Positions 1,776 through 38,867 of a stretch of 62,581 nt of DNA are shown in pieces (position 1 is the stretch's first letter; each line of letters starts with the position of its first letter). A program made the translations under genes and the position numbers. The notes under the pieces are model-generated. The model saw nothing but the letters and a program-made list of their open reading frames with translations, searched no databases and was not told where the DNA came from. This stretch comes from Promethearchaeota archaeon (lineage in GTDB: Archaea; Asgardarchaeota; Hermodarchaeia; Hermodarchaeales; Hermodarchaeaceae), in contig JBHLPH010000011.1 in NCBI GenBank assembly GCA_048939625.1, positions 1 to 62,581 of the forward strand. Direction: 5' to 3'.

Positions 1776-3047
1776 CTAAGAAGATGATTTCTTCAAGGTT
1801 TTTGGCACATAACTTGAAAGGGTCTTTATTCGACTGTCGCGTTCCAATACATCGGTGACCATTTTTTTCGGTACGCTGAGACGAATGTTCTTGGTTCGTC
1901 CGTATCTACCCTTACTGATTACTTTTGCATTCACAAGACCTATTGCATCTAAATCGTTGATGAGATCGCTGACGCGTCGCTGAGTGAGTGGATCCATTCC
2001 AAGTTGAGTGCAAATGTCCCCGTATACATCTTGGACCTCACCTGTTACAGGATGAGGATGTTTGTGGCGTTCCAACAAGTATACCGCATAAAGCACCAGT
2101 TTCTGTTGAACAGGTAATGTTCGTAATACTTCGAGAACAGTGTCACGTTCAATGCTCAGTCGCGCTTTTTCAACGTGTTCAACTTTAACGTTGTCACTGG
2201 ATTCTCTTTCAGCGATTTCCACAGCAACTCGTAAGAGATCAAGGGCCCTACGTGCATCGCCTTCTTCCCTTGCAGCTAGGGCTGCACATAAATTAATAAC
2301 ACCAGGCTCTTCTAAGATTCCCTCTTTTAAGCCAACAGAACTTCTTCGTCGAAGAATATCCTGTAGTTGGAGCGCGGTATAGGGATGAAAGATGACCTTT
2401 TCTTCACTAAGGCTACTAAGCACTCGCGAATCCAGATACTCGGGGAAGCGGAGATCGTTGGATATACCAATTAGACTTACGCGAGCCTTTGAAAGCTCAT
2501 AATTTATGCGAGTAAGTTTGTACAATGTGTCGTCTCCACTTTTTAGGACCAAACGATCAATTTCATCGAGCACAATAATCGTTAACAAATCCTGGCTTTC
2601 GAGCAGTTCGATAAGCCTAGAATGTACTTCGTCCGTTGGCAGACCAGTAAAAGGAACCTTCTGTCCTAGTTCAGCACAGATTCGGGCAAGAACCCGATAG
2701 TCGGTGTCTACATTTCGGCAATTAAGATACACTGACTTGAAGGGCAGTTGAAGTTCACCGAATTTTGTTGTTAATTCGCGTAAGACGTATCTGGTTACTG
2801 CAGTTTTTCCAGTTCCAGGTTTTCCATAGACAAAAACGTTTGATGGCCGACTACCCTTCAATCCTGTTGCGAGGATATTCCCTATTTGTGTAATTTGATC
2901 ATTGCGGTGAGGGAGAACATCAGGGACATAAGAATGCCAAAGCACTTTTCGGTCCTCGATTAGAGTCGGACCTGAACTCAGTCTCTCAAAGATGCGATCA
3001 AGTGGTCGAGGGTCGTCCATGTCATAGGCTCCTTCACTAGGTCCCAA
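1776..3047 (-). CDS. cdc6: Orc1/Cdc6 replication initiator, origin-associated; probable start ATG 3020
   Basis: YVPDVLPHR, Walker A GKPGTGKT, Walker B LDEID, GDARRALDLLR, C-terminal wHTH ending SKGRYGRT. Confidence 0.97.
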   Translation of the reverse strand: MGPSEGAYDMDDPRPLDRIFERLSSGPTLIEDRKVLWHSYVPDVLPHRNDQITQIGNILATGLKGSRPSNVFVYGKPGTGKTAVTRYVLRELTTKFGELQLPFKSVYLNCRNVDTDYRVLARICAELGQKVPFTGLPTDEVHSRLIELLESQDLLTIIVLDEIDRLVLKSGDDTLYKLTRINYELSKARVSLIGISNDLRFPEYLDSRVLSSLSEEKVIFHPYTALQLQDILRRRSSVGLKEGILEEPGVINLCAALAAREEGDARRALDLLRVAVEIAERESSDNVKVEHVEKARLSIERDTVLEVLRTLPVQQKLVLYAVYLLERHKHPHPVTGEVQDVYGDICTQLGMDPLTQRRVSDLINDLDAIGLVNAKVISKGRYGRTKNIRLSVPKKMVTDVLERDSRIKTLSSYVPKTLKKSSS

Positions 3048-3150: not shown

Positions 3151-3533
3151 TGTTCACAATTGGCGCGCTAAATGTTAACATTAATTCCAAAAAAACAGCT
3201 ATTTCTCCTTCTTTTCTAGATTGAATCCAAAATTGATATTATTATTGGGTTAACAAAGGCTCCCCCCTTCATTTCCACTGGAAAATGGTTCTAAGAGCAT
3301 AAAATCGTTAGAAAGATTATCAATGTGTTAACAACATGTGAACACCTTCAAAAGATGGAGAAATGGCTTAAAATAGAGAATAAAGGACGAAGAGCTGAGA
3401 TTTAATCTATTTTCATTTGTAGACAAGAGAAATCTTCCTTAACCTAACCAAGACCCGTAAGAGCCTTTGTTGATGTTCACTTCATTTTCTGGATCATTCA
3501 GTTCACACCGTCACACTTTTATTTCTGTGAACA
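3151..3533. repeat. Dispersed pseudo-palindromic TGT(T/G)(A/C)ACA repeats, about 8 copies
   Basis: tgttcaca 3151, tgttaaca 3173, gttaaca 3249, tgttaaca 3326, tgtgaaca 3337, tgttcac 3474, gttcaca 3501, tgtgaaca 3526. Confidence 0.6.
3262..3284 (-). promoter_or_regulatory. ORB1, origin recognition box with G-string
   Basis: Reverse complement reads TTTCCAGTGGAAATGAAGGGGGG. Confidence 0.92.
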
Positions 3534-3585: not shown

Positions 3586-4041
3586 ATGAAGAAACGGAAA
3601 CAAAAGATCACCATCGAAGGCTTGACAATTGAAGGAAAACCTTGTGACATCACAATTACCTTTGATGATGGCCTCCCAGCTTCAATCACCGAGTCAATCT
3701 CAACTGCCTTGAAAGGCACCGATAGATCGAATACTTCCGCTGAAACACCTCCAAGCTCATCTGCAATCCCTGATGTTGAATCCTGGACAGTTCGCCAAAA
3801 AGTTCGTTACATTGTTTTGCGCAATTGCCGTCACGGTTGGTTTACCTCAAAAGACATCCAAGAATTGTATGACCACACTTTTCACCCCTCTATCCCCCTA
3901 GCAACAGCTTCAACATACCTATCAAGAATGCATAAAGAAGGGAGTCTCACCCGAAGAGGATCAGCAGCCCAACGCGAATATCGTCTCAACATTGAAGATC
4001 TTACCGACGAAATCGCTGAAGTCTTGGCCAACCAAATCTAG
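3586..4041 (+). CDS. Winged-helix DNA-binding protein within the origin region
   Basis: C-terminal WFTSKDIQELY...LATASTYLSRMHKEGSLTRRG...REY wHTH pattern; divergent from cdc6. Confidence 0.75.
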   Translation: MKKRKQKITIEGLTIEGKPCDITITFDDGLPASITESISTALKGTDRSNTSAETPPSSSAIPDVESWTVRQKVRYIVLRNCRHGWFTSKDIQELYDHTFHPSIPLATASTYLSRMHKEGSLTRRGSAAQREYRLNIEDLTDEIAEVLANQI

Positions 4042-4183: not shown

Positions 4184-4204
4184 CCCCTTCGTTTCCACTG
4201 GAAC
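4184..4204 (-). promoter_or_regulatory. ORB2
   Basis: Reverse complement reads GTTCCAGTGGAAACGAAGGGG. Confidence 0.92.
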
Positions 4205-4386: not shown

Positions 4387-4408
4387 GTTCCAGTGGAAAT
4401 AAAGGGGG
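4387..4408 (+). promoter_or_regulatory. ORB3
   Basis: GTTCCAGTGGAAATAAAGGGGG, inverted relative to ORB2. Confidence 0.92.
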
Positions 4409-4419
4409 TTATCTAATTA

Positions 4420-4716
4420 CTAAGCTACTAGTTGATAATATACAGAAGGACGGCCACGACGCCCATTTCGCTCTATATATTTCTCTACGACACCTGAGAT
4501 CAGGAGATTCATTAGGGTATCATAGACAGTGGTCCTTGGGATCCCGGTTTTCACCGTTATCTCTCCTCGTGTAAGCGCACCTTTATCTCGTAAAAGGTCG
4601 GTGATATGTCCCTTGACGTCTGCAGGTTCGGTCCGCTGGATTTGCGATGATCTCTGTCGGGACTTTGGTTTTTGTGTTCCGTGGGTTGCTTGTTGAGACG
4701 TTCGGGTAGCGGCCAT
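4420..4716 (-). CDS. Small TrmB-like winged-helix protein
   Basis: LTRGEITVKTGIPRTTVYDTLMNL...GRRGRPSVYY wHTH pattern. Confidence 0.8.
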   Translation of the reverse strand: MAATRTSQQATHGTQKPKSRQRSSQIQRTEPADVKGHITDLLRDKGALTRGEITVKTGIPRTTVYDTLMNLLISGVVEKYIERNGRRGRPSVYYQLVA

Positions 4717-4772
4717 AATACTACAACTCTGCGTCTAGATAAATATCGGCTATTTATATTAGTTGTGGATGA

Positions 4773-4785
4773 TTTCCACTGGAAC
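4773..4785 (-). promoter_or_regulatory. Mini-ORB (ORB4) without a G-string, upstream of the small wHTH gene
   Basis: Reverse complement reads GTTCCAGTGGAAA; TATA-like segment at 4751-4760. Confidence 0.75.
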
Positions 4786-4811
4786 TTATTGAATTCAATG
4801 AAATAAATGAA
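4785..4811. repeat. 9-bp tandem array A (TTCAWTGAA family)
   Basis: cttattgaa-ttcaatgaa-ataaatgaa. Confidence 0.75.
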
Positions 4812-4854
4812 ACTATTCTTTACTAAAACACTGAACGTTGTGTTAATGAATGTA

Positions 4855-7200
4855 TTATTGTATCATAGAACGGGACACCAGAGATTGACCTGCTGAAGTC
4901 CCTGCATCGCCTGGGGGGACACTTTGGTGCAAAAGAAATTGAATTCCTTCCTTCTCCACTATAGAACGAATAACCCGTGTAAGTATCTTATTATACGCAA
5001 CCCCTCCAGAGAAACCAATCTTCTGAATCCCATTTGAGTTTGCCGCGCCAATTGCTGTCTCAGCTAACGCTTGACCAAGACTATGGTGAGCTGCCAAGGC
5101 AAGATCAGGACCTTTGTATCTCTTTCGTTTTTGAAGCACTTGATTAACCAAAACTTCTGTTCTGATAATCTTCGACTTGCCCTCCTGATCAATGGGGACT
5201 TCTAAACGGAGCTTGGGATTCACTTTTCCTGAATTTGCAAAAGCCTCCAACTGAATGGCTGGTTCTCCCTCGTATGTTCGCTTGTATGAAATTTTGAGCA
5301 AGGCTGCGAGTGAATCTAAAACACGACCTGTACTTGAGGTGAAAGGGGTGTTAATCCTCTGTGTAAGTTGAGAGAGAATGATAGCATACTCCGTTTGCCC
5401 TTGAGGTAGCGCAATCTTTGCTTCATCCTCAAAGAGCGCCTTTAATTCGTCTTGAGGATATTTCTTCGAAAGTATACCTAACAACATTCGGAACGGGTAT
5501 TTGGCAGCCTGATCTCCTCCAGGCATTGGGTGCGGTTCAAGAAATCCTGCTCGAGTATATTGACTAGCGTTTCCGACAAGAATCTCTCCACCCCATATGG
5601 TGTTATCCGGACCATATCCAGCACCATCACAACAGATTGCTACAATATCTTCTTCTGATGGAATTTTATGATCTGCAAGCAATGCAGCTAGATGAGCATG
5701 GTGGTGTTGTACACGAATTAGTGGGACTTTTTGATTCTTTGATAATTCCAATCCATATTGCGAGGTGAGAAAATCAGGGTGCAAATCACAGGCAACAGCT
5801 TCAAAATTGGAAACTCGAAGCAATCGCTGTAAATGAGCCAGACTCTCTTGTAGATATGTCAAGGACTCAATGGTATCAATATCGCCTATATGCTGTGTCA
5901 AGTATATGCGTCTTTTGTGATATATCGCGCCTGTATTTTTTTCCAGAGCACCAAGAGCGAGTACGGTGGGTCCCCCATCTGCGGTGTCTATTGGTTCAGG
6001 AGCATAGCCCCGGGAACGACGGATAATTAATCCCTGGTTGAAGAGAGGGATTACTACCGAGTCATCACAGCGTTGATGGATTGTTCGATTATGAGTAAGT
6101 AAGTAATCTGCCAGTTCCATGAAACGTTCTTGATATGTGGAAGCATGTATTATGGTAGGCAAGCCTACCGGGTTTGCACTGGTCATCACTAATGCGAGAT
6201 CTTGCAGTCCTTCAAATAATCGTAAATAAATCCCTGAATACGGAAGCATAACACCTATTGTATCTAATTTCGGGGCTAGATTTTGTGCTAAAGGGAATGG
6301 CCTACGTTGGTTTAGCACTACGATCGGGCGTCGCCATGAAGTTAGAAGCTGTTCTGCTATCTCGTCAACGTGTGCAAATTCTCTTACATCATCAAGGCTC
6401 TTGGACATAATGGCTAAGGGCTTGTTAGGCTTTTTTCGTAATTCACGCAAACGTGATATCTCTGTGGAGAGAGAAGCACGAACGGCTAGATGGATTCCCC
6501 CTAAACCTTTGATAGCTATGATTGCACCTTCATTAAGTAATTTCACAGCTTCAACAAAAGGGTCACTTACCTCAACACGCCTTCCATCCGATCGCAGAAG
6601 TTTGAACTGAGGTCCACAAATAGGGCAGCAAATAGTCTGCGCATTATATCGGCGATTTAGTGGATCATTATATTCCACATCGCAATCTGCACAGAGTGGA
6701 AAATCGTTCATCGTAGTTCGTTCACGGTCATAAGGTGTATCGGTTATAGTAGTATATCGGGGTCCACAGATTGCACAACAAGTCATGGGATATTGGTAGT
6801 GACGGGATTGAGGGTTATTCATATCCTCGATACAATCCGGACAAACCGAAATATCAGGGGGAATGACAGATCCCCCCGCTTGTTTCTCATTTTTCGATAT
6901 TCGAATTTGAAAATCAGTGAATCCTTCCTTCGTCGGCTTCCATATCGTTTGAATACTATCGATGACAGCCAAATACGGCTTCTCATTTTCAATGGATTCA
7001 ATGAATTCAATGATTTTTTCTTTTTCTCCCTCCACCACGATTCGAACCGCTGAATTTCCAGTATTCAGAACATAGCCGTTTAAACAACGGTTCACGGCCT
7101 GGGCGTAAATAAATGGACGAAAACCGATTCCCTGAACGACACCGACAACTCGAATTTCAGCTTGTTGAATATCAGTCACGGTGTCATCTCCGTGTTTCAC
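4855..7200 (-). CDS. hypF: Hydrogenase maturation carbamoyltransferase HypF
   Basis: Acylphosphatase domain GVVQGIGFRPF, CxxC zinc fingers, KGLGGIHL, QHHHAH, PPGDAG. Confidence 0.97.
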   Translation of the reverse strand: MKHGDDTVTDIQQAEIRVVGVVQGIGFRPFIYAQAVNRCLNGYVLNTGNSAVRIVVEGEKEKIIEFIESIENEKPYLAVIDSIQTIWKPTKEGFTDFQIRISKNEKQAGGSVIPPDISVCPDCIEDMNNPQSRHYQYPMTCCAICGPRYTTITDTPYDRERTTMNDFPLCADCDVEYNDPLNRRYNAQTICCPICGPQFKLLRSDGRRVEVSDPFVEAVKLLNEGAIIAIKGLGGIHLAVRASLSTEISRLRELRKKPNKPLAIMSKSLDDVREFAHVDEIAEQLLTSWRRPIVVLNQRRPFPLAQNLAPKLDTIGVMLPYSGIYLRLFEGLQDLALVMTSANPVGLPTIIHASTYQERFMELADYLLTHNRTIHQRCDDSVVIPLFNQGLIIRRSRGYAPEPIDTADGGPTVLALGALEKNTGAIYHKRRIYLTQHIGDIDTIESLTYLQESLAHLQRLLRVSNFEAVACDLHPDFLTSQYGLELSKNQKVPLIRVQHHHAHLAALLADHKIPSEEDIVAICCDGAGYGPDNTIWGGEILVGNASQYTRAGFLEPHPMPGGDQAAKYPFRMLLGILSKKYPQDELKALFEDEAKIALPQGQTEYAIILSQLTQRINTPFTSSTGRVLDSLAALLKISYKRTYEGEPAIQLEAFANSGKVNPKLRLEVPIDQEGKSKIIRTEVLVNQVLQKRKRYKGPDLALAAHHSLGQALAETAIGAANSNGIQKIGFSGGVAYNKILTRVIRSIVEKEGIQFLLHQSVPPGDAGTSAGQSLVSRSMIQ
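6988..7014. repeat. 9-bp tandem array B, inside the hypF coding sequence
   Basis: ttcaatgga-ttcaatgaa-ttcaatgat, encoding IIEFIESIE on the minus strand. Confidence 0.7.
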
Positions 7201-7267
7201 CGACTCTAGCAGAGTATTAATTCTTTTGGAGTTATTATCTATAGTATCTATTCAGGTGCGTGTAATA

Positions 7268-7861
7268 GTGACTGAGTTTCGAGTGCCTACACCAAAGGAA
7301 TTACAGGATTTACGAAAGAAGGTAGGACTTACTCAAGCTGAATTAGCAGAGCAAGTAGGTATTAGTCAATCTCTAGTTGCACGTATAGAAATGGGGAAAG
7401 TAAATCCAAGCATTGCAACTCTCAAACGGATCCTCAGTGTTATCGAAAGGCAGAAAAAAACTCATTCTAGTCTCGGTGATTTGTTAAAATGGAAGGCCCG
7501 TTCAACCAAACTAAATCCGCTTATCTGGGTTAGCCCTGATGACAAAGTGCGACGTGCAGCAATCCTCATGCGGCGTCACGGAATTTCTCAACTCCCAGTA
7601 TTGATGGGAAATACTTCTGCCGGATCTATCAGTGAAAGCACAATAATCCGCCAATTGATGACCATGGGGTCACCAAAGGTCTTTGGGCTCTCTGTTCGAG
7701 AAATTATGGAGCCTCCTTTTCCTACAGCTGATATACAAGACAATGTTGATTCAGTACTAGCCAAGATTGCTTCAGGCGTTGAAGCTATACTCGTATTGAA
7801 TGAAGATAGACCTGTAGGAATCATTACAAAAATAGATATCATCGCGTTTACGAGGATGTAA
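7268..7861 (+). CDS. XRE-type HTH plus CBS-pair transcriptional regulator
   Basis: LRKKVGLTQAELAEQVGISQSLVARIE, then two CBS repeats (GISQLPV, GIITKIDI). GTG 7268 follows AGGTG; the ORF track starts at 7181. Confidence 0.92.
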   Translation: MTEFRVPTPKELQDLRKKVGLTQAELAEQVGISQSLVARIEMGKVNPSIATLKRILSVIERQKKTHSSLGDLLKWKARSTKLNPLIWVSPDDKVRRAAILMRRHGISQLPVLMGNTSAGSISESTIIRQLMTMGSPKVFGLSVREIMEPPFPTADIQDNVDSVLAKIASGVEAILVLNEDRPVGIITKIDIIAFTRM

Positions 7862-7881
7862 AGACCTATTCAAACAACAAA

Positions 7882-7908
7882 TTCAATAATTTCATTAAAA
7901 TTATTAAG
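7882..7908. repeat. 9-bp tandem array C (degenerate), upstream of the AAA+ gene
   Basis: ttcaataat-ttcattaaa-attattaag. Confidence 0.5.
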
Positions 7909-8035
7909 ATTTATATTTCCAATACAATCAATAATCTTTTATCGTTGTAGACCTTTCCTTGAGATATTCTTGGAAGTGTTATAGCTGAGTGAACTGGATC
8001 GATTAGTCGAGCAAACACAGAAGTTCGACCAACAA

Positions 8036-9289
8036 ATGCTCGCGAAATGGGGTTTTAAAACTGAAAGGATTGAACTCTTCGGGATTGATTCCGCGGATTT
8101 GTACGTTGTTCCCGAAGAAGAAGCACTCGCAATTAAACGCGCTGTGAATTATCTTCGAAATCAAACCGCCAGTGTCGTAGTTTCTGGTCCATTAGGCGCA
8201 GGTAAAACCACTTTTCTAGAGATGATTCAACAATCCCTTAATCGCCTACCCAATGTTCGTGCGATTCGCCTTGAAGGTGTTAGTTCAGCTGACGCACTAA
8301 TTGATGACCTTGTCCACGCTAATATCGGTGAACTAACAGTTCGTGATTTCCTGATTGACAAAGTGGGGGTTCGGGTCGTCCGAAGTGGATCAATAGCTAA
8401 ACGATTATCGCGCCTACTTCTTGCTTTGAGAACTGATGCCGAAGAAAACGGGACCTCCTATGTATTGTTAATAGATGAATTCCGGCAACTAGAAAGACAA
8501 AGGCCTGATAATCGTGTTCGAATTGTTGATACACTTCTACGAATGGTAAACGATAAGACTAAGGATGGTCGGCGTTATCTTGTTCTAGCCTTAGCCATTA
8601 TAACACGCGTTGGAGAAAGTGCAGTTCGGACACTTGAGCTCCTCTCTTCTGTCGGAGAATCTCTCGGTCATGGCAGTAAGTCCGCGATTAGGCGACGATT
8701 CGTTGAGATTTACGATATGCGTCGAATGAAAGAAATCAGTGCCCGTAAAGTAATGCTTTGGCGCTTAGCCCACCTCAAAGGTTCCTTAGATGAAATTAAC
8801 AAAGACCCTGAAGAAAGTATTGATCTCAATTCGGCAAAGATTAAAGAAATTTTAGCACCCTTCACAGGGGAAGCGCTTAATGCGATTTATAATTACTCAG
8901 GTGGAAATCCTGGTATTATGCTAGAGCTCCTTTTACGAACCCTTCAGGATGCAATCCGTGGAGCTGAGGTTCTAATAAACGATGGCTATACTTTGAATCA
9001 AGTCTTGTCAGTCTATCGAATAGACTCAGAGTACATCCAACAATTTGTTCAAAAAGAAGTAAAACGGGCTAGAGCCGAATTTACTAACTTTCAAACGAAT
9101 CTGTTGGAATTTCTCTCGGCCCCTCGCTCACTTGATGATATTGAATCTTGGCTTCAGGAAAAGGAACGTTCCTGGGAAAGCGTGTTAGAAGATTTCGATT
9201 TATTCGAAAAGCAAGGGCTAATCTATAGCCCGGAAGCTGGTCAGATACAAGCTACTGAACTTTGGACGAAAGGATCAACATTTGTGTAA
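8036..9289 (+). CDS. ExeA/AAA_22-like AAA+ ATPase with probable C-terminal wHTH; may start at CTG 7985
   Basis: Walker A GPLGAGKTT, Walker B LLIDEF, arginine-finger-like SAIRRRF, IYNYSGGNPG motif, C-terminal ...FEKQGLIY. Confidence 0.8.
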   Translation: MLAKWGFKTERIELFGIDSADLYVVPEEEALAIKRAVNYLRNQTASVVVSGPLGAGKTTFLEMIQQSLNRLPNVRAIRLEGVSSADALIDDLVHANIGELTVRDFLIDKVGVRVVRSGSIAKRLSRLLLALRTDAEENGTSYVLLIDEFRQLERQRPDNRVRIVDTLLRMVNDKTKDGRRYLVLALAIITRVGESAVRTLELLSSVGESLGHGSKSAIRRRFVEIYDMRRMKEISARKVMLWRLAHLKGSLDEINKDPEESIDLNSAKIKEILAPFTGEALNAIYNYSGGNPGIMLELLLRTLQDAIRGAEVLINDGYTLNQVLSVYRIDSEYIQQFVQKEVKRARAEFTNFQTNLLEFLSAPRSLDDIESWLQEKERSWESVLEDFDLFEKQGLIYSPEAGQIQATELWTKGSTFV

Positions 9290-9300
9290 GGTGAAAAGAA

Positions 9301-9675
9301 ATGTCAGCAACCGATCTCATTAGAGAAAGAATGGAGAAGGAAAAGGGAAAAGAAAAAAAACCCAAACCACGCGAAGCAAAACCAACAACCGAAACGAAGA
9401 GAATCGAGCTTGAAGAGCTCTCAACCAGAGTTGGCGACTCTGGGTTGAAACGATTGCGAATTGAAAGTGAATACGAAGGCAGACGAACAATAAGTGCAAG
9501 TGTACCTGCTTGGATTAAAGCGGCGTTAGATTTCGTCGCATTAGCTGCAACGAAATCAGGACAGGGTCAATATGCAGGTTTTGGCGGAAAATCCAGGTTT
9601 ATTGCTGAGGCTCTTGAGGAGAAACTAAAATCCGATTTTCCTGATGTGTACAAGCAATTACAGCGTGAAGGGTAA
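9301..9675 (+). CDS. Ribbon-helix-helix protein with a charged N-terminal tail
   Basis: RRTISASVP (strand), AWIKAALDFVA (helix A), KSRFIAEALEEKL (helix B); starts 11 nt after the ATPase stop, with SD GGTGA. Confidence 0.75.
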   Translation: MSATDLIRERMEKEKGKEKKPKPREAKPTTETKRIELEELSTRVGDSGLKRLRIESEYEGRRTISASVPAWIKAALDFVALAATKSGQGQYAGFGGKSRFIAEALEEKLKSDFPDVYKQLQREG

Positions 9676-9693
9676 AAGAAGAAATCTAATCAA

Positions 9694-9720
9694 GTAATTG
9701 AATTCATTGAAATTATTGAG
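9694..9720. repeat. 9-bp tandem array D
   Basis: gtaattgaa-ttcattgaa-attattgag. Confidence 0.75.
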
Positions 9721-9808
9721 ATTAGTGGTATTTACACGCCGTTACTCATTTTAGTGCCCGTTCTATTAATAGACTCCTTCTACTTCTCAGCATGGGTGGA
9801 ATGCGGAT

Positions 9809-10378
9809 ATGTCCTATGATGCAAGACGAGTTTGTGTAATTTCCTTTGATTTTAAACAAAAGAAAGGGAGAAGCCAAGCTCGAAAAACCCGTTTCTTTCG
9901 TGAATTATATGGTTACACTCAGCAAATCAAACAGCAATTGAAAGATGGTGAAGTTGCCGTACGAAACTATCACTATCCAGGAGTGTTGGATCAGATTCCG
10001 CATATTAAACTAGGGAGAAGCGTGTTGGCTGTAAATCCAGGAGACGAATATAAAATTATCAACCTGCTCCGTGATTTTGATGAAGTGTTGTTTTTTAATT
10101 TCATTAGTTGGCTCCCAGCTCATATGTGGTCAAAGAACGATAACCAATACACTAGGGCCAGTACTATGATCGCTAAATATGGGTTCCACTCAATTCTATT
10201 CCAGATTCAAGAATTAGGTGGTACTGCGCAATACACAGATCTTCTCGATGCTGGATATGATATGGAGTATATTCGGGAAGCCACTCACTATCTTACCACA
10301 AAAGAACTTCTTGTTAAGGATAATGACAACCTCGCTCTTACAATGAAGGCAAATCGAATTCTAAATTTGGTAGTCTAG
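9809..10378 (+). CDS. Hypothetical protein: Cas2/PaaX-like N-terminal domain plus C-terminal wHTH
   Basis: VCVISFD...FFRELYGY...KLGRSVLAV pattern; C-terminal YLTTKELL...LALTMKA. Confidence 0.5.
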   Translation: MSYDARRVCVISFDFKQKKGRSQARKTRFFRELYGYTQQIKQQLKDGEVAVRNYHYPGVLDQIPHIKLGRSVLAVNPGDEYKIINLLRDFDEVLFFNFISWLPAHMWSKNDNQYTRASTMIAKYGFHSILFQIQELGGTAQYTDLLDAGYDMEYIREATHYLTTKELLVKDNDNLALTMKANRILNLVV

Positions 10379-10394
10379 TATAAAAAATCACGAA

Positions 10395-10421
10395 TTCAAT
10401 ATGTTCATTGGGTTCATTGAA
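10395..10421. repeat. 9-bp tandem array E
   Basis: ttcaatatg-ttcattggg-ttcattgaa. Confidence 0.7.
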
Positions 10422-10426
10422 ACTAT

Positions 10427-10939
10427 TTACTCAGGCTTTAGCGCTGTTGGTTGGGCAAGGGCTTCAATGAGCTGCAGAATTCGATTCTGAGTTTGTTTAA
10501 GTGTGCTTAAATGAGTAGCAGTGGGTTTTTCTTTATTTGTAGCAACGAGGTCGTATTCGCGAGCATAACTTCGGATGTCCTCAGCAAGACTTTGATACCG
10601 CATCAAAGATGGGGTTTCGAATAGACCCAGGTAACCCAGTAGCACTAAAGTGAACACAGATTTGGTCACGTTACGTCTAGCTTGGGCTAGAGAACGATTG
10701 AAAGCTCCTCGAGTTACTCCACCACGTTTTCGTTTCGATCTTTTTTGGTCCCTTAGAGAAGCCTTCGTTTGGTAGTCAATCCGTTTTCCCCCGAATCCAT
10801 CTAAAAGATAGTCTAGTACTAAGGTTTCAAGTTGTACTCTGGACAGTTGACTATTTTCTGCCAGCATTTGAGTGATTGGGTCTTGAAGCATTCTACGCGC
10901 CCAGGAGCGCGTTTCCTCGATTTCGTTTTCTTGAGGCAA
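10427..10939 (-). CDS. Hypothetical archaeal HTH-like protein
   Basis: SQLSRVQLETL...VTRGAFNRSLAQARRNV helix-turn-helix-like pattern; SD GGAG upstream of TTG. Confidence 0.65.
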   Translation of the reverse strand: MPQENEIEETRSWARRMLQDPITQMLAENSQLSRVQLETLVLDYLLDGFGGKRIDYQTKASLRDQKRSKRKRGGVTRGAFNRSLAQARRNVTKSVFTLVLLGYLGLFETPSLMRYQSLAEDIRSYAREYDLVATNKEKPTATHLSTLKQTQNRILQLIEALAQPTALKPE

Positions 10940-11032
10940 ATCCTTATCTCCATGGATACAATTTTGTATACGTAGAAATTCAAGCTCTTATAAACTCGCT
11001 GATTAGAACTCTATTCGAAATATTTCTCTAGC

Positions 11033-11068
11033 TTGAATAAATTTAATGAATTCATTGAATTCAATGGT
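11033..11068. repeat. 9-bp tandem array F (4 units)
   Basis: ttgaataaa-tttaatgaa-ttcattgaa-ttcaatggt. Confidence 0.8.
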
Positions 11069-11091
11069 GTAACTAAGATAGTGAGCATTGA

Positions 11092-13077
11092 ATGAAGTTT
11101 TTATCCTTCAATAGCATTCACTTGGTGAGGATCTGGATAATGTGTTCAGACCAAGCTAACTCCTATTTTCCATATGCTGAACCTCGACCAGGTCAACTCT
11201 CACTGATTCATGCAATCAAAGAAGAAGTTTCGGTGGGGAATCATCTTTGTGTTGAAGCGGCTAACGGATTCGGAAAAACGATCGCCGCCTTATCAGGGGT
11301 CCTTCCACTCCTTGCTGATCGGACCTTTGGGATTATCTATGTTACTCGAACTCACAAGCAACTTGATCGGGTTATGCAAGAGCTTCGACAAATCTCAAAC
11401 TCTACTGGCCATAAAGGCATAGTACATCGAGGAAGGGCGGCTTCTTGTTTAAATCCTTTAGTTCGGAAATATGCTGCCAATGCCCAGGTTGCGATGTATA
11501 TGTGTAGCCAGCTTAAGCGGCTTGGACGGTGCAGCTTTTACAAGAATTTAGTAAATAAAACGAAAAAGAACGGAAACTTCCATAGAGATTTTATTTACAC
11601 ACCACTTACTGGCTTAGAATTTCGCTCTAAATGTCAAGCAGAGAAAGTGTGCCCCTATGAGCTCTCTAAGCGATTGCTACCACTAGTGAACGTCGTTGCT
11701 ACAACATATTTTCAGGTTTTTGATCCTAACATCCGTCAAATGTTCTTCGATGCCTTTGGACATCCAATATCTCAAACAATTCTTCTTCTCGACGAAGCTC
11801 ATAATTTACCTCGCATAGGTGTTGAACTAGCATCCGCAAAATTATCCATAAATTCCATTAACCGATCCCTAAAAGAAACCAAGAAATATAATCTCCCCAA
11901 GATTGGACGATTCTGTGTAATAATCGAAAATCTGATTCAACATTTACTTGAAACGAGAAAAGAAGACGAAATTCTACTGGAACAAAGCGAATTCACTCAG
12001 CAGATTTGTAAATTCCTGAAAATCTCTGACTTCAGTGTATTTGCCAAAAGTATGCAACAAACTGCTGACAAAATAATAAGTCAATTACTTGCACATGATG
12101 AACCTCCTGTAAGCTACATTCATTCCTTAGCTAGGTTCTTTGTCAACTGGAGTTACTTCTTAGATCGAACCGATGCCGCTTTTTTTCTTACAAGAAATGG
12201 ATTAAACAGCTCCTCAGTAAATCTCGAAATCATTGCACTGGACCCGCGAACATCGACAGCCTCAATATTGAACTCATGTCACGCTTCTGTACATTTATCA
12301 GGAACCCTAAAACCCGCAAAGGCTCATATTGACCTTGTAGGACTACCACATAATACAAGGATTCTCAATTTGCCTTCTCCATTTTCACAGGATCAAATGC
12401 TTACATTGATTAGTCTAGGAGTAACGACTGCAATGAAGTATAGAACTCCAAAAATGTATGAGAAAATATCTCATCGGATCCTTGAAGCCTGTCGGGCAAC
12501 TCCTCATAATGTTGGAATCTTTGTCCCTTCTTATTCTGTGTTAAATGCTCTTCTTGTTGCAGGCTTAGAAGAGCTACTTGATCGAGAACTATTCATTGAA
12601 AAACCAGGAATGTCCTCTAACGAAAACGATTCGCTAATAAAGAAATTTAAACAGAAGTCCGATGAAGGCGCGGGTCTTCTTGGTGTCCTAAGTGGTAGAA
12701 ATAGTGAAGGAGAAGACTATCCAGGTCATGAAATGGAAACAGTAGTAATTGTTGGCGTTCCCTATGCGCGACCTAGTCCGAGAGAAAGTGCACGTATCGA
12801 TTATTTTGAACGTCATTTTCCGAGAAAAGGACGATTATATGGTTATCAATTACCTGCAATGCGCAGTGCTTCTCAGGCCGCTGGAAGATCGATTCGACGG
12901 CTCGATGATAAAGGGGCAATAGTCTTTTTAGATGACCGCTATGCTACTAGATATTGTAATCGTTTACTTCCGAGTTGGATAAACGAAAACTTAAGGGGTT
13001 CGAAAGACGCTGATGAAGTACTCTACAACCACCTGAAGCTGTTCTATTCAACCAACAAATATAGCCAAACTTGTTAA
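11092..13077 (+). CDS. xpd: XPD/Rad3 family Fe-S DNA helicase; probable start ATG 11140
   Basis: FPY..PRPGQ Q-motif, ANGFGKT, Fe-S cysteines (CLNP...CSFY...CPYE), DEAHN, SGTL, SEGEDY, QAAGRSIR. Confidence 0.93.
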   Translation: MKFLSFNSIHLVRIWIMCSDQANSYFPYAEPRPGQLSLIHAIKEEVSVGNHLCVEAANGFGKTIAALSGVLPLLADRTFGIIYVTRTHKQLDRVMQELRQISNSTGHKGIVHRGRAASCLNPLVRKYAANAQVAMYMCSQLKRLGRCSFYKNLVNKTKKNGNFHRDFIYTPLTGLEFRSKCQAEKVCPYELSKRLLPLVNVVATTYFQVFDPNIRQMFFDAFGHPISQTILLLDEAHNLPRIGVELASAKLSINSINRSLKETKKYNLPKIGRFCVIIENLIQHLLETRKEDEILLEQSEFTQQICKFLKISDFSVFAKSMQQTADKIISQLLAHDEPPVSYIHSLARFFVNWSYFLDRTDAAFFLTRNGLNSSSVNLEIIALDPRTSTASILNSCHASVHLSGTLKPAKAHIDLVGLPHNTRILNLPSPFSQDQMLTLISLGVTTAMKYRTPKMYEKISHRILEACRATPHNVGIFVPSYSVLNALLVAGLEELLDRELFIEKPGMSSNENDSLIKKFKQKSDEGAGLLGVLSGRNSEGEDYPGHEMETVVIVGVPYARPSPRESARIDYFERHFPRKGRLYGYQLPAMRSASQAAGRSIRRLDDKGAIVFLDDRYATRYCNRLLPSWINENLRGSKDADEVLYNHLKLFYSTNKYSQTC

Positions 13078-13078
13078 A

Positions 13079-13105
13079 AATAATAAATTCAATGAATTCA
13101 TTAAT
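13079..13105. repeat. 9-bp tandem array G
   Basis: aataataaa-ttcaatgaa-ttcattaat. Confidence 0.7.
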
Positions 13106-38699: not shown

Positions 38700-38867
38700 A
38701 TGAAGCTGATTACTGTGAATCTTCCAGAAGCGTATGTTAATGGAATCGAACGTTTGATTCTCGAGAAGCTGTACCCAAATCGCAGCGAAGCGATTCGAAT
38801 TGCAGTAAGAGATCTTTTGAAAAAAGAGCTTTGGGAGCAGAGTACTCCCCAACCGCAAATAAGGTGA
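38700..38867 (+). CDS. cdrS: CdrS-like RHH regulator of cell division genes
   Basis: MKLITVNLP...YPNRSEAIRIAVRDLL immediately upstream of ftsZ. Confidence 0.85.
   Translation: MKLITVNLPEAYVNGIERLILEKLYPNRSEAIRIAVRDLLKKELWEQSTPQPQIR

Follow-up and report, generated by a model that had tools for sequence, protein, structure and literature searches.

Arrays of an abutting 9-bp palindrome beside the replication origin of Hermodarchaeum-group Asgard archaea, and a candidate protein that may bind them

What are seven blocks of short, abutting palindromes doing along one side of an archaeal replication origin? The question is raised by contig JBHLPH010000011.1 of a Promethearchaeota archaeon, which at 62.6 kb is taken here whole as the analysed window (contig C28 of genome G000; 2.31 Mb in 83 contigs, 88% complete). 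Between positions 4785 and 13105 the window carries seven arrays of three to four abutting 9-bp palindromic units, each found where an earlier reading of the letters, called below the sequence-only reading, had placed it. These arrays are certainly functional DNA sites, and it is very hard to see them as anything other than docking sites for a protein. The leading candidate for that protein is P0001, a 124-aa protein encoded within the cluster in one operon with an AAA+ ATPase.

Seven phased arrays on one flank of oriC

The unit had been read as TTCAWTGAA; the palindromic 9-mer and its arrangement in arrays stood, and the literal motif did not. TTCAWTGAA occurs once in each of six arrays and is absent from the array at 7882, the real unit being the degenerate wTYAWTRAw, in which A4 and T6 hardly vary, the position pairs 1/9, 2/8 and 3/7 are complementary, and conservation is lowest at the junctions between units. 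The pitch is exactly 9 bp with three to five units per array, which makes these phased arrays of symmetric units, as in operators of the MetJ and omega type. Because the units are too degenerate, Tandem Repeats Finder reported only three of the seven arrays, and scans with mismatches and regular expressions were needed.

With such scans the excess over expectation is large. The exact 9-mer TTCAWTGAA has nine matches in the window against 2.07 expected, and a three-unit pattern at up to two mismatches has 12 against 0.08 expected from dinucleotide shuffles, all of them inside 4786-13104. In the whole 2.31-Mb genome, every 27-mer within five mismatches of the ideal trimer falls within the window, and nine of the 16 genome matches to a core pattern (T.AWT at period 9, three times), representing all seven arrays, lie in 0.36% of the genome, which is the enrichment near oriC for which a genome-wide scan had been proposed as a check. 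Five other core-pattern matches (C3:7748, inside an uncharacterised 355-aa open reading frame, C14:6461, C38:28715, C69:1061 and C81:23070) were treated as chance. The isolated single copies reported at 12592, 21451 and 32349 were found as well, together with one further genuine array outside the cluster at C10:4740; seven of the eight genuine sites of this genome are thus packed into 8.3 kb.

The cluster adjoins oriC, as had been claimed. Origin recognition boxes (ORBs) 1 to 3 lie at 3264-3283, 4184-4203 and 4388-4408 (inverted) beside cdc6-1 (1776-3047, minus strand), followed by the outermost box, ORB4, at 4765-4784; three of the four carry a G-string, ORB4 being the one without. The oriC call is sound because four ORBs adjoin cdc6-1. 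In the genus Hermodarchaeum the arrays occupy one flank of the origin only, and the first of them begins at the base that follows ORB4, in agreement with the sequence-only reading. The 9-mers do not match the ORB core (TTTCCAsTGGAA), and the ORBs are separate elements. Plasmid-type iterons, which are direct repeats of about 17-22 bp accompanied by a Rep protein, were also considered; the units here are 9-bp palindromes and the window contains no Rep-family gene. A mobile-element or iteron reading is rejected on this gene content and because the region, housekeeping genes included, keeps its synteny throughout the genus.

Pfam assignments give the gene order as PolD small subunit, DUF2240, cdc6-1, the origin, a TrmB-like 98-aa gene (4420-4716, minus strand), hypF, a gene with HTH_3 and CBS domains, the AAA+ ATPase gene (8036-9289), the P0001 gene (9301-9675), genes for a 189-aa and a 170-aa protein, XPD, RadB, CarS, an OST3-like gene and cdc6-2. 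Array 1 (4785-4820; units CTTATTGAA, TTCAATGAA and ATAAATGAA and a degenerate ACTATTCTT) is 69 bp upstream of the TrmB-like gene, on the far side of ORB4 and of that gene's TATA box (4751-4762), and array 2 (6988-7014; TTCAATGGA, TTCAATGAA and TTCAATGAT) lies within the coding sequence of hypF, where it had been noticed before. Array 3 (7882-7908; TTCAATAAT, TTCATTAAA and ATTATTAAG, with no perfect TTCAWTGAA) stands directly upstream of a TATA-like box (7909-7917) of the ATPase/P0001 operon, an order kept across congeners. Array 4 (9694-9729; GTAATTGAA, TTCATTGAA and ATTATTGAG and a degenerate ATTAGTGGT) follows the P0001 stop codon by 19 bp and precedes the 189-aa gene by about 80 bp, and array 5 (10395-10430; TTCAATATG, TTCATTGGG and TTCATTGAA and a degenerate ACTATTTAC) falls within the 51 nt that separate the stop codons of the converging 189-aa and 170-aa genes. 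The four units of array 6 (11033-11068; TTGAATAAA, TTTAATGAA, TTCATTGAA and TTCAATGGT) occupy the divergent gap between the 170-aa gene and XPD and end 23 nt before the XPD start, and array 7 (13079-13105; AATAATAAA, TTCAATGAA and TTCATTAAT) fills the 27-bp gap from the XPD stop to the RadB start, ending 0 nt before the latter. Convergent, divergent and tandem contexts are thus all represented, as previously described.

A single box, ATCAATAAT (7927-7935), lies 9 nt downstream of the TATA-like box of the operon, near the predicted transcription start; it is kept in 11 of 13 aligned spacers and differs by a single base in the remaining two. Array 3, the TATA-like box and this single box would together form a classic autoregulatory layout for the ATPase/P0001 operon if transcription starts at the predicted position. 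By such layout, overlap between arrays and core promoters is predicted at this operon and is plausible at the XPD and RadB starts, and it does not extend to the arrays in hypF and in the convergent gap.

Two further features of the intergenic DNA were noted. A second palindrome, GGATACAATTTTGTATAC (10954-10971), stands 15 nt upstream of the start of the 170-aa gene and is nearly invariant in all congeners; it is unrelated to the 9-mers and is probably the operator of another factor. At 7181-7200 the longest open reading frames of hypF (minus strand) and of the helix-turn-helix (HTH)-CBS gene (plus strand) share 20 nt in a head-to-head overlap; the HTH domain begins about 30 residues later in the homologues, so the start of this gene is probably further downstream, which would leave a short divergent promoter without an array.

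Conservation of the arrays as DNA

The genomes of the Hermodarchaeum group come from sediment metagenomes of several studies, and each of the other 14 species genomes of the genus encodes P0001. From cdc6-1 to RadB the genes keep their order across the genus with small exceptions (XPD is absent in two congeners), and 12 of the 13 congener loci examined contain four to eight arrays at syntenic positions, the thirteenth, on a 2.7-kb contig, containing one; conservation in related genomes, which had been put forward as a check, is thus evident. Spacer alignments show that the arrays survive as motifs, their units swapping A and T at the centre and G and A at position 7, while the surrounding spacer diverges. 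Array 1 is kept in every congener whose locus spans the site, and array 5, in the convergent gap, retains two to three units in 11 of 12 congeners. In the two congeners that lack XPD, the DNA between the 170-aa gene and RadB still holds both arrays (G011, locus L022) or one of them (G014, locus L014), with array 6 kept in both and, in the former, an array also staying upstream of RadB.

The array within hypF provides a separate line of evidence. About 190 bp inside the gene, it encodes IIEFIESIE in the acylphosphatase domain of HypF, and in a HypF codon alignment of 11 species with 31 invariant isoleucine columns (codon use ATT 189, ATC 104, ATA 48) just three of these columns use a single codon in all 11 species. 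All three are ATT, and they are the isoleucine codons at positions 4-6 of the array units; the chance of picking exactly those three columns is about 1 in 4,500. Array 2 is therefore held by synonymous-site constraint, i.e. it is selected as DNA. Because this array is so constrained, and because the convergent-gap array is kept in 11 of 12 congeners, the arrays are not simply promoters, which bears out the sequence-only reading on this point.

The eighth genuine array of the genome (C10:4739-4765; loci L028/L031) has three units, CTCATTGAA, ATTAATGAA and TTTAATGGG, and is located at a divergent promoter with a longin-like/Ras-GTPase operon on one side and a GNAT (Rv0428c_C-type) gene on the other. 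It is kept in 11 of the 12 congeners having the GNAT gene, on contigs other than the origin contig, with about 70 kb or more separating it from the origin in G010. The array is followed by conserved blocks, TTCTTTC ... CCGACAAAAA ... TTAAAGTCG, which could be a promoter or leader element.

Outside the genus, the sister-genus genome G016 (L027) has two arrays between XPD and the 170-aa gene, at 9944-9995 and 10447-10489. No P0001 or ATPase homologue was found in the four sister-genus genomes, which are 80-83% complete; L027 ends 340 bp past the second array, and the ATPase/P0001 operon of the sister genus may be unassembled. In a phylum-wide pattern scan the AT-rich background dominates several families, and the scan is therefore informative only for the Hermodarchaeum-group family and for 'Candidatus Asgardarchaeum abyssi' (G022). 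The latter has a three-array version of the system with a P0001 homologue: arrays lie in the divergent gap beside the P0001 homologue, and another array, upstream of a TrmB-like gene, has a full ORB about 15 bp away and cdc6 at 1.8 kb. No ATPase is present beside the P0001 homologue of A. abyssi, nor was one detected elsewhere in this 93%-complete genome, and its XPD and RadB homologues (about 30% identical) are on other contigs without arrays.

Two further groups of contigs complete this comparison. Two short metagenome contigs encode remoter homologues, P0054 and P0055, with arrays directly flanking the ATPase/small-protein pair and a mini-ORB present; in L029 a mini-ORB follows an array. 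Two 'Ranarchaeia' contigs from NCBI, L044 and L045, were found via their ATPase homologues (54-58% identity), and in both the ATPase/P0001-type operon is 1.7-2 kb from cdc6 and ORBs, surrounded by seven and eight arrays respectively at up to seven mismatches, or by six each at up to five mismatches against 0.003-0.01 expected. Each has one array in a convergent gap, a context thereby seen in three lineages overall, and L044 has one array on the opposite side of cdc6. The neighbouring genes differ from those in Hermodarchaeum (Alba, adenosine-kinase-like, POR, ZPR1 and aminotransferase genes); an array is found about 105-120 bp upstream of the Alba chromatin-protein gene in both L044 (6321-6356) and L045 (7296-7340).

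From this comparison, the operon is within a few kb of cdc6 in each lineage with a sufficiently long contig, an array abuts or adjoins an ORB in both the genus Hermodarchaeum and A. abyssi, and origin linkage is conserved across lineages. Since the 'Ranarchaeia' neighbours differ and the XPD and RadB homologues of A. abyssi carry no arrays, the array cluster follows the operon and the origin and not particular target genes.

A candidate binder and an ORC/Cdc6-like partner

P0001 (9301-9675, plus strand) had been named as the protein with which to test binding, against the background of ribbon-helix-helix (RHH) centromere-binding proteins. Its N-terminal helix (DLIRERM) is conserved, it carries a tail rich in K and E, and its C-domain (RTISASVPAWIKAALD ... 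GFGGKSRFIAEAL) is RHH-like; its family comprises 50 clusters, all at least 52% identical. Among 1.84 billion proteins a C-domain profile retrieved three representatives, and across 185,579 species genomes it retrieved 14 loci, namely those of 13 Hermodarchaeum-group metagenome-assembled genomes and of A. abyssi. In every P0001-bearing lineage that could be inspected, arrays lie within about 300 bp of the gene and usually within about 100 bp; an array stands upstream of the ATPase gene and another just after the P0001 gene in the window (arrays 3 and 4) and likewise in L029 and L045, and L030 also has an array directly after its P0001-like gene. P0001 is the likeliest binder because it was the only protein whose distribution matched that of the arrays wherever this could be inspected, its family having been found only in array-bearing lineages, and we consider it likely that P0001 does bind them. 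One small symmetric dimer per 9 bp would fit, since each unit is palindromic alone, with information at its centre and its weakest positions at the junctions.

The choice of P0001 as binder has gained and the RHH fold less so. The pattern of the C-domain is a strand (RTISASVP), a helix, an 11-residue loop and the GFGGKSRFIAEAL helix (GxxxKSRFIAEAL), into which the predicted helices fit, and a single pre-specified comparison by hhalign with the canonical RHH_1 proteins of the genus aligned P0001 in the expected register with a 9-residue insertion (P = 0.007). The nearest clusters of the ESM-Atlas by features and structure are RHH families (CB_ParB_C, CopG, MetJ, RHH_1 and RHH_3/NikR), with scores of 0.85-0.88 and template-modelling scores of 0.5-0.66 that are below threshold and serve as leads only. 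On this weak evidence the fold of P0001 is probably RHH-like. A canonical RHH_1 protein of 63 aa (MKLITVNLPEAYV...RSEAIRIAVRDLL), small and of the CdrS/aCcr1-like type, is also encoded in the window, at 38709-38825; it is unrelated to P0001 and has a 72-aa paralogue at C38:49617.

The partner of P0001 in the operon (8036-9289, plus strand) is an AAA+ ATPase with a Walker A motif (GPLGAGKT), AAA/ATPase_2/AAA_22 domains and a C-terminal part that resembles a winged helix. Its identity within the genus is 82-91%, and among 201 Asgard genomes it is confined to the genus Hermodarchaeum. The predicted model (pLDDT, the predicted local distance difference test, 73) finds its best matches, over 350-420 columns, in Aeropyrum ORC2, Sulfolobus Cdc6/Orc1 and eukaryotic ORC4, so that, judged by this model, the ATPase resembles ORC/Cdc6 and not ParA. 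No motor of the ParA, ParM or TubZ type was found in the locus, the sole CbiA/ParA-type match in the window being a weak secondary match on RadB. The N-terminal motif of P0001, D(L/M)I(R/K)(E/K)R(M/L), is found in the three lineages with the ATPase as neighbour, whereas the two homologues examined that have no such neighbour, P0053 and that of A. abyssi, do not have it. Complex prediction for the ATPase and P0001 gave a score of 0.08 against a mark of 0.32, which counts neither for nor against binding.

The true start of the ATPase is probably about 60 nt upstream of the ATG at 8036, to judge from the conservation of the upstream 51 nt as coding sequence (LSELDRLVEQTQKFDQQ) and the length of most homologues (436-437 aa). 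In the window an in-frame TAG (7982-7984) comes soon after the upstream GTG (7976), and this copy either starts differently or has a variant or error at the TAG. Two other products of the locus were considered as binders and rejected: the 170-aa neighbour, which co-occurs with arrays but whose family is spread over 77 of 201 sampled Asgard genomes, some of them from families in which the pattern counts are no higher than in the control, and the ATPase as primary binder, since A. abyssi has arrays with no detectable ATPase.

Possible roles of the arrays

Several known systems place short repeated sites around a small DNA-binding protein. The omega protein of pSM19035, ParG and ParR bind 7-10 bp repeats that abut in multi-copy arrays, in either orientation, at several promoters around the par operon; in omega-type systems one RHH dimer occupies each unit, cooperative binding wraps the DNA, the sites double as operator and centromere, and a flexible N-terminal tail contacts the nucleoside triphosphatase (NTPase). 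The likeness lies in the short abutting repeats arranged in arrays at several promoter regions around an operon for an NTPase and a small protein; here, however, the unit is a 9-bp palindrome, the arrays extend along 8 kb of an archaeal chromosome next to oriC, an ORC/Cdc6-like AAA+ protein stands as partner in place of ParA or ParM, and P0001 has no detectable sequence relationship to these proteins in Pfam or PDB. In Escherichia coli, MetJ binds two to five abutting 8-bp palindromic boxes with one RHH dimer per box and cooperativity between dimers along the array. MetJ is an S-adenosylmethionine-dependent metabolic repressor with sites scattered at the promoters of its regulon and without origin linkage, an ATPase partner or non-promoter sites; the abutting short palindromic boxes are thus shared, whereas the arrays described here are origin-linked and have an ATPase partner and non-promoter sites.

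Archaeal systems offer other parallels. In the SegAB system of the Sulfolobales, which is also chromosomal, a small site-specific protein is encoded after the ATPase gene and has sites just upstream of the operon. SegB sites cluster around the segAB operon and oriC1, with few elsewhere, and each is a single 13-bp palindrome (TCTAGA-S-TCTAGA), 84% of them being intragenic, while SegA is a ParA-type Walker ATPase (PMC8682754; bioRxiv 10.1101/2025.02.07.637068). The tandem 9-mers differ from this single palindrome, and searches with P0001 found no SegB-type protein. The aCcr1/CdrS protein is a small archaeal RHH repressor with a 9-bp palindromic box between TATA and start codon (PMC9976878), and so pairs a small protein with a box of this length, as is predicted here for P0001; it differs in having one or two boxes per promoter and not phased arrays, another box sequence, scattered cell-division targets and a canonical RHH_1 domain. 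HpaB of the Haloferax volcanii plasmid pHV3 is an RHH centromere-binding protein whose N-terminal domain contacts its ATPase, HpaA, a ParA of bacterial origin, and it occupies six discrete AT-rich sites, all upstream of unrelated genes and with little spreading, over a 438-kb secondary replicon (PMC13722703). HpaB sites are not packed beside oriC and are not tandem 9-mers.

Set against these systems, the locus has no ParA-type deviant Walker ATPase, P0001 has no Pfam match (and so no HTH ParB), and the sites are not 16-bp parS, which separates it from ParABS. Repeated sites do lie beside and upstream of the operon, as with RHH centromere-binding proteins, and an NTPase of the ParA, actin or tubulin type is missing. 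A full-text literature search for the motif strings returned only primer-type coincidences, and a literature search that included the Asgard origin papers returned no description of these arrays or of the ATPase/P0001 gene pair; as far as this search shows, the origin-linked protein-DNA assembly is previously undescribed.

On balance we favour an explanation in which the arrays are cooperative docking sites for a sequence-specific protein, most probably P0001, that regulates its own operon and organises a domain on the origin flank. One two-fold symmetric P0001 dimer would read one 9-bp unit through a single major groove, and three to five dimers on abutting units at a 9-bp pitch would touch and wind around the DNA, much as MetJ dimers contact each other along 8-bp met boxes and omega dimers along 7-bp heptads. 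Binding would autoregulate the ATPase/P0001 operon, whose TATA box has an array beside it and whose predicted transcription start is close to a single box, and would probably occlude several neighbouring promoters, while some seven arrays over about 8 kb would mark one flank of oriC as a nucleoprotein domain, to which the charged tail and N-terminal helix of P0001 may recruit the ORC-like ATPase. The primary role is, in our estimate, somewhat more likely to be positional and origin-linked (chromosome organisation, segregation or origin control) than the control of particular genes, because of the positional behaviour across lineages, the non-promoter sites and the contact with an ORB. A bolder version, in which an RHH adaptor on phased arrays recruits the ORC/Cdc6-like ATPase onto the intervening DNA and so makes the 8 kb a handle for segregation or origin licensing, is tentative and rather unlikely; if true, it would be a partition or organisation system with a motor derived from a replication initiator, not from ParA, actin or tubulin.

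A number of observations weigh against the favoured explanation. Binding by P0001 is predicted from sequence, and neither P0001 nor its C-domain profile gave an informative sequence match against Pfam or PDB; the RHH_1 model does not pick up P0001 in six-frame scans, and an AF2 monomer of P0001 reached a pLDDT of 55, with nothing meaningful returned when Foldseek compared that model with PDB. Candidate binders remain in four canonical RHH genes elsewhere and in the local HTH-CBS, TrmB-like and 151-aa proteins, and the two arrays of the sister genus come without P0001 from a contig that ends nearby and genomes that are 80-83% complete. The XPD and RadB homologues of A. abyssi may, at about 30% identity, not be orthologues. 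Six of the eight conserved arrays are promoter-proximal, as plain operators would be, and the conserved array at the GNAT/longin-Ras promoter, off the origin contig, fits a regulon.

These last points bear on the reading that competes most directly, a plain local regulon in which a repressor, P0001 or another, controls its own operon together with the TrmB-like, 189-aa, 170-aa, XPD, RadB and GNAT/longin-Ras genes, origin proximity being incidental. This reading stays alive because most arrays are promoter-proximal, at or beside gene starts, and because of the distant GNAT site. It is consistent with the array that abuts the TATA box of the operon and the box near the predicted transcription start, with the arrays that stay beside the XPD and RadB starts despite spacer changes, with A. 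abyssi, where a small protein has arrays at two divergent promoter gaps without an ATPase, and with the short palindromic boxes used by RHH regulators, such as the 9-bp box of aCcr1 between TATA and start codon (PMC9976878). It does not predict convergent-gap arrays in three lineages, an intragenic array under synonymous constraint some 190 bp inside hypF, or the packing of seven of eight sites of a 2.3-Mb genome into 8.3 kb, and it sits poorly with the 'Ranarchaeia', in which the neighbour genes are wholly different and the cluster, operon and origin linkage persist, and with the array-less XPD and RadB homologues of A. abyssi; we regard it as a serious minority possibility. That P0001 has another role and the arrays are bound instead by the HTH-CBS protein (7181-7861), the TrmB-like 98-aa protein (4420-4716), the 151-aa protein (3586-4041) or a canonical RHH protein is doubtful. 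The first three do co-occur with the arrays in A. abyssi, and one or more of the 'Ranarchaeia' contigs also have the HTH-CBS and 151-aa proteins; an HTH dimer could read the 18-bp inverted repeat formed by two neighbouring units, four RHH_1-type genes are present in the genome, and the assignment of P0001 to RHH is weak. Against this, a unit that is palindromic alone with the least conserved positions at its junctions suits a small dimer per 9 bp and not an HTH dimer, tblastn finds no HTH-CBS gene in L044 and no TrmB-like gene in L044 or L045, the canonical RHH_1 model also matches in eight of 14 well-known control genomes (array status there being outside the comparison), and as far as could be tested it is the P0001 family alone whose distribution matched the arrays.

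In a true centromere, P0001-coated arrays would form a segrosome that the adjacent AAA+ ATPase moves or positions in place of a ParA-type motor, and the layout is indeed that of a par operon, with an NTPase gene, then a gene for a small DNA-binding protein whose N-terminal tail is charged, and repeated sites on both sides that cluster beside oriC; the N-terminal motif of P0001 tracks the presence of the ATPase, and SegB (bioRxiv 10.1101/2025.02.07.637068) and HpaB (PMC13722703) are archaeal precedents. Yet the ATPase is ORC/Cdc6-like, A. abyssi has arrays and the small protein with no detectable ATPase in a 93%-complete genome, one conserved array is far from the origin, and the sequence evidence does not speak to movement or positioning. 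We know of no partition motor that is an AAA+ protein of the initiator clade, and a true centromere appears unlikely. The 'parS-like centromere' of the sequence-only reading is plausible as a fair analogy to omega/ParG, SegB and HpaB, of which the clustering beside oriC stood; it fails on the motor, and most arrays are promoter-proximal with one off the origin. Replication control, in which the arrays recruit or titrate the ORC-like ATPase, or Orc1/Cdc6 at the touching ORB, and so influence the firing of the origin, the loading of the helicase or the passage of forks on one flank of oriC, is less probable still. The best matches of the ATPase model are indeed archaeal ORC2/Cdc6 and eukaryotic ORC4, two distant lineages have an array against or close to an ORB, the operon is a few kb from cdc6 in every lineage with sufficient contig, and within the genus the arrays keep to a single flank, but they reach 8 kb from the origin, far past what acting on ORBs would need, L044 has an array on the other side of cdc6, A. 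abyssi has no ATPase, and RHH-directed loading of an ORC-like protein has no precedent known to us. Finally, the intergenic DNA is AT-rich and the hypF array codes for an amphipathic I-x-E repeat, which might be favoured in a helix in any case, so that chance low-complexity sequence or a coding by-product has to be considered; this is refuted because the counts are far above expectation (12 against 0.08 in the window, and six each against 0.003-0.01 in L044 and L045), and with motif-level conservation inside diverged spacers and the synonymous-site constraint in hypF its probability is negligible.

Asgard archaea are the closest prokaryotic relatives of eukaryotes, and their chromosome organisation, segregation and licensing are poorly understood, almost none having been cultured. 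What the arrays add is a compact cis element, with about eight sites per genome, a clear consensus, a candidate binder and an ORC-like partner, in at least three Asgard lineages and tied to oriC; since element, binder and partner are so defined, the question can be put to the test directly in vitro, given two small recombinant proteins and synthetic DNA. If this is only a local repressor system, it would still be a clean new example of phased operators in the style of MetJ and omega in archaea. If the ATPase is recruited to the arrays, it would be the first initiator-clade AAA+ protein to work with an RHH adaptor on a chromosome flank, with a bearing on the evolution of ORC-type machines.

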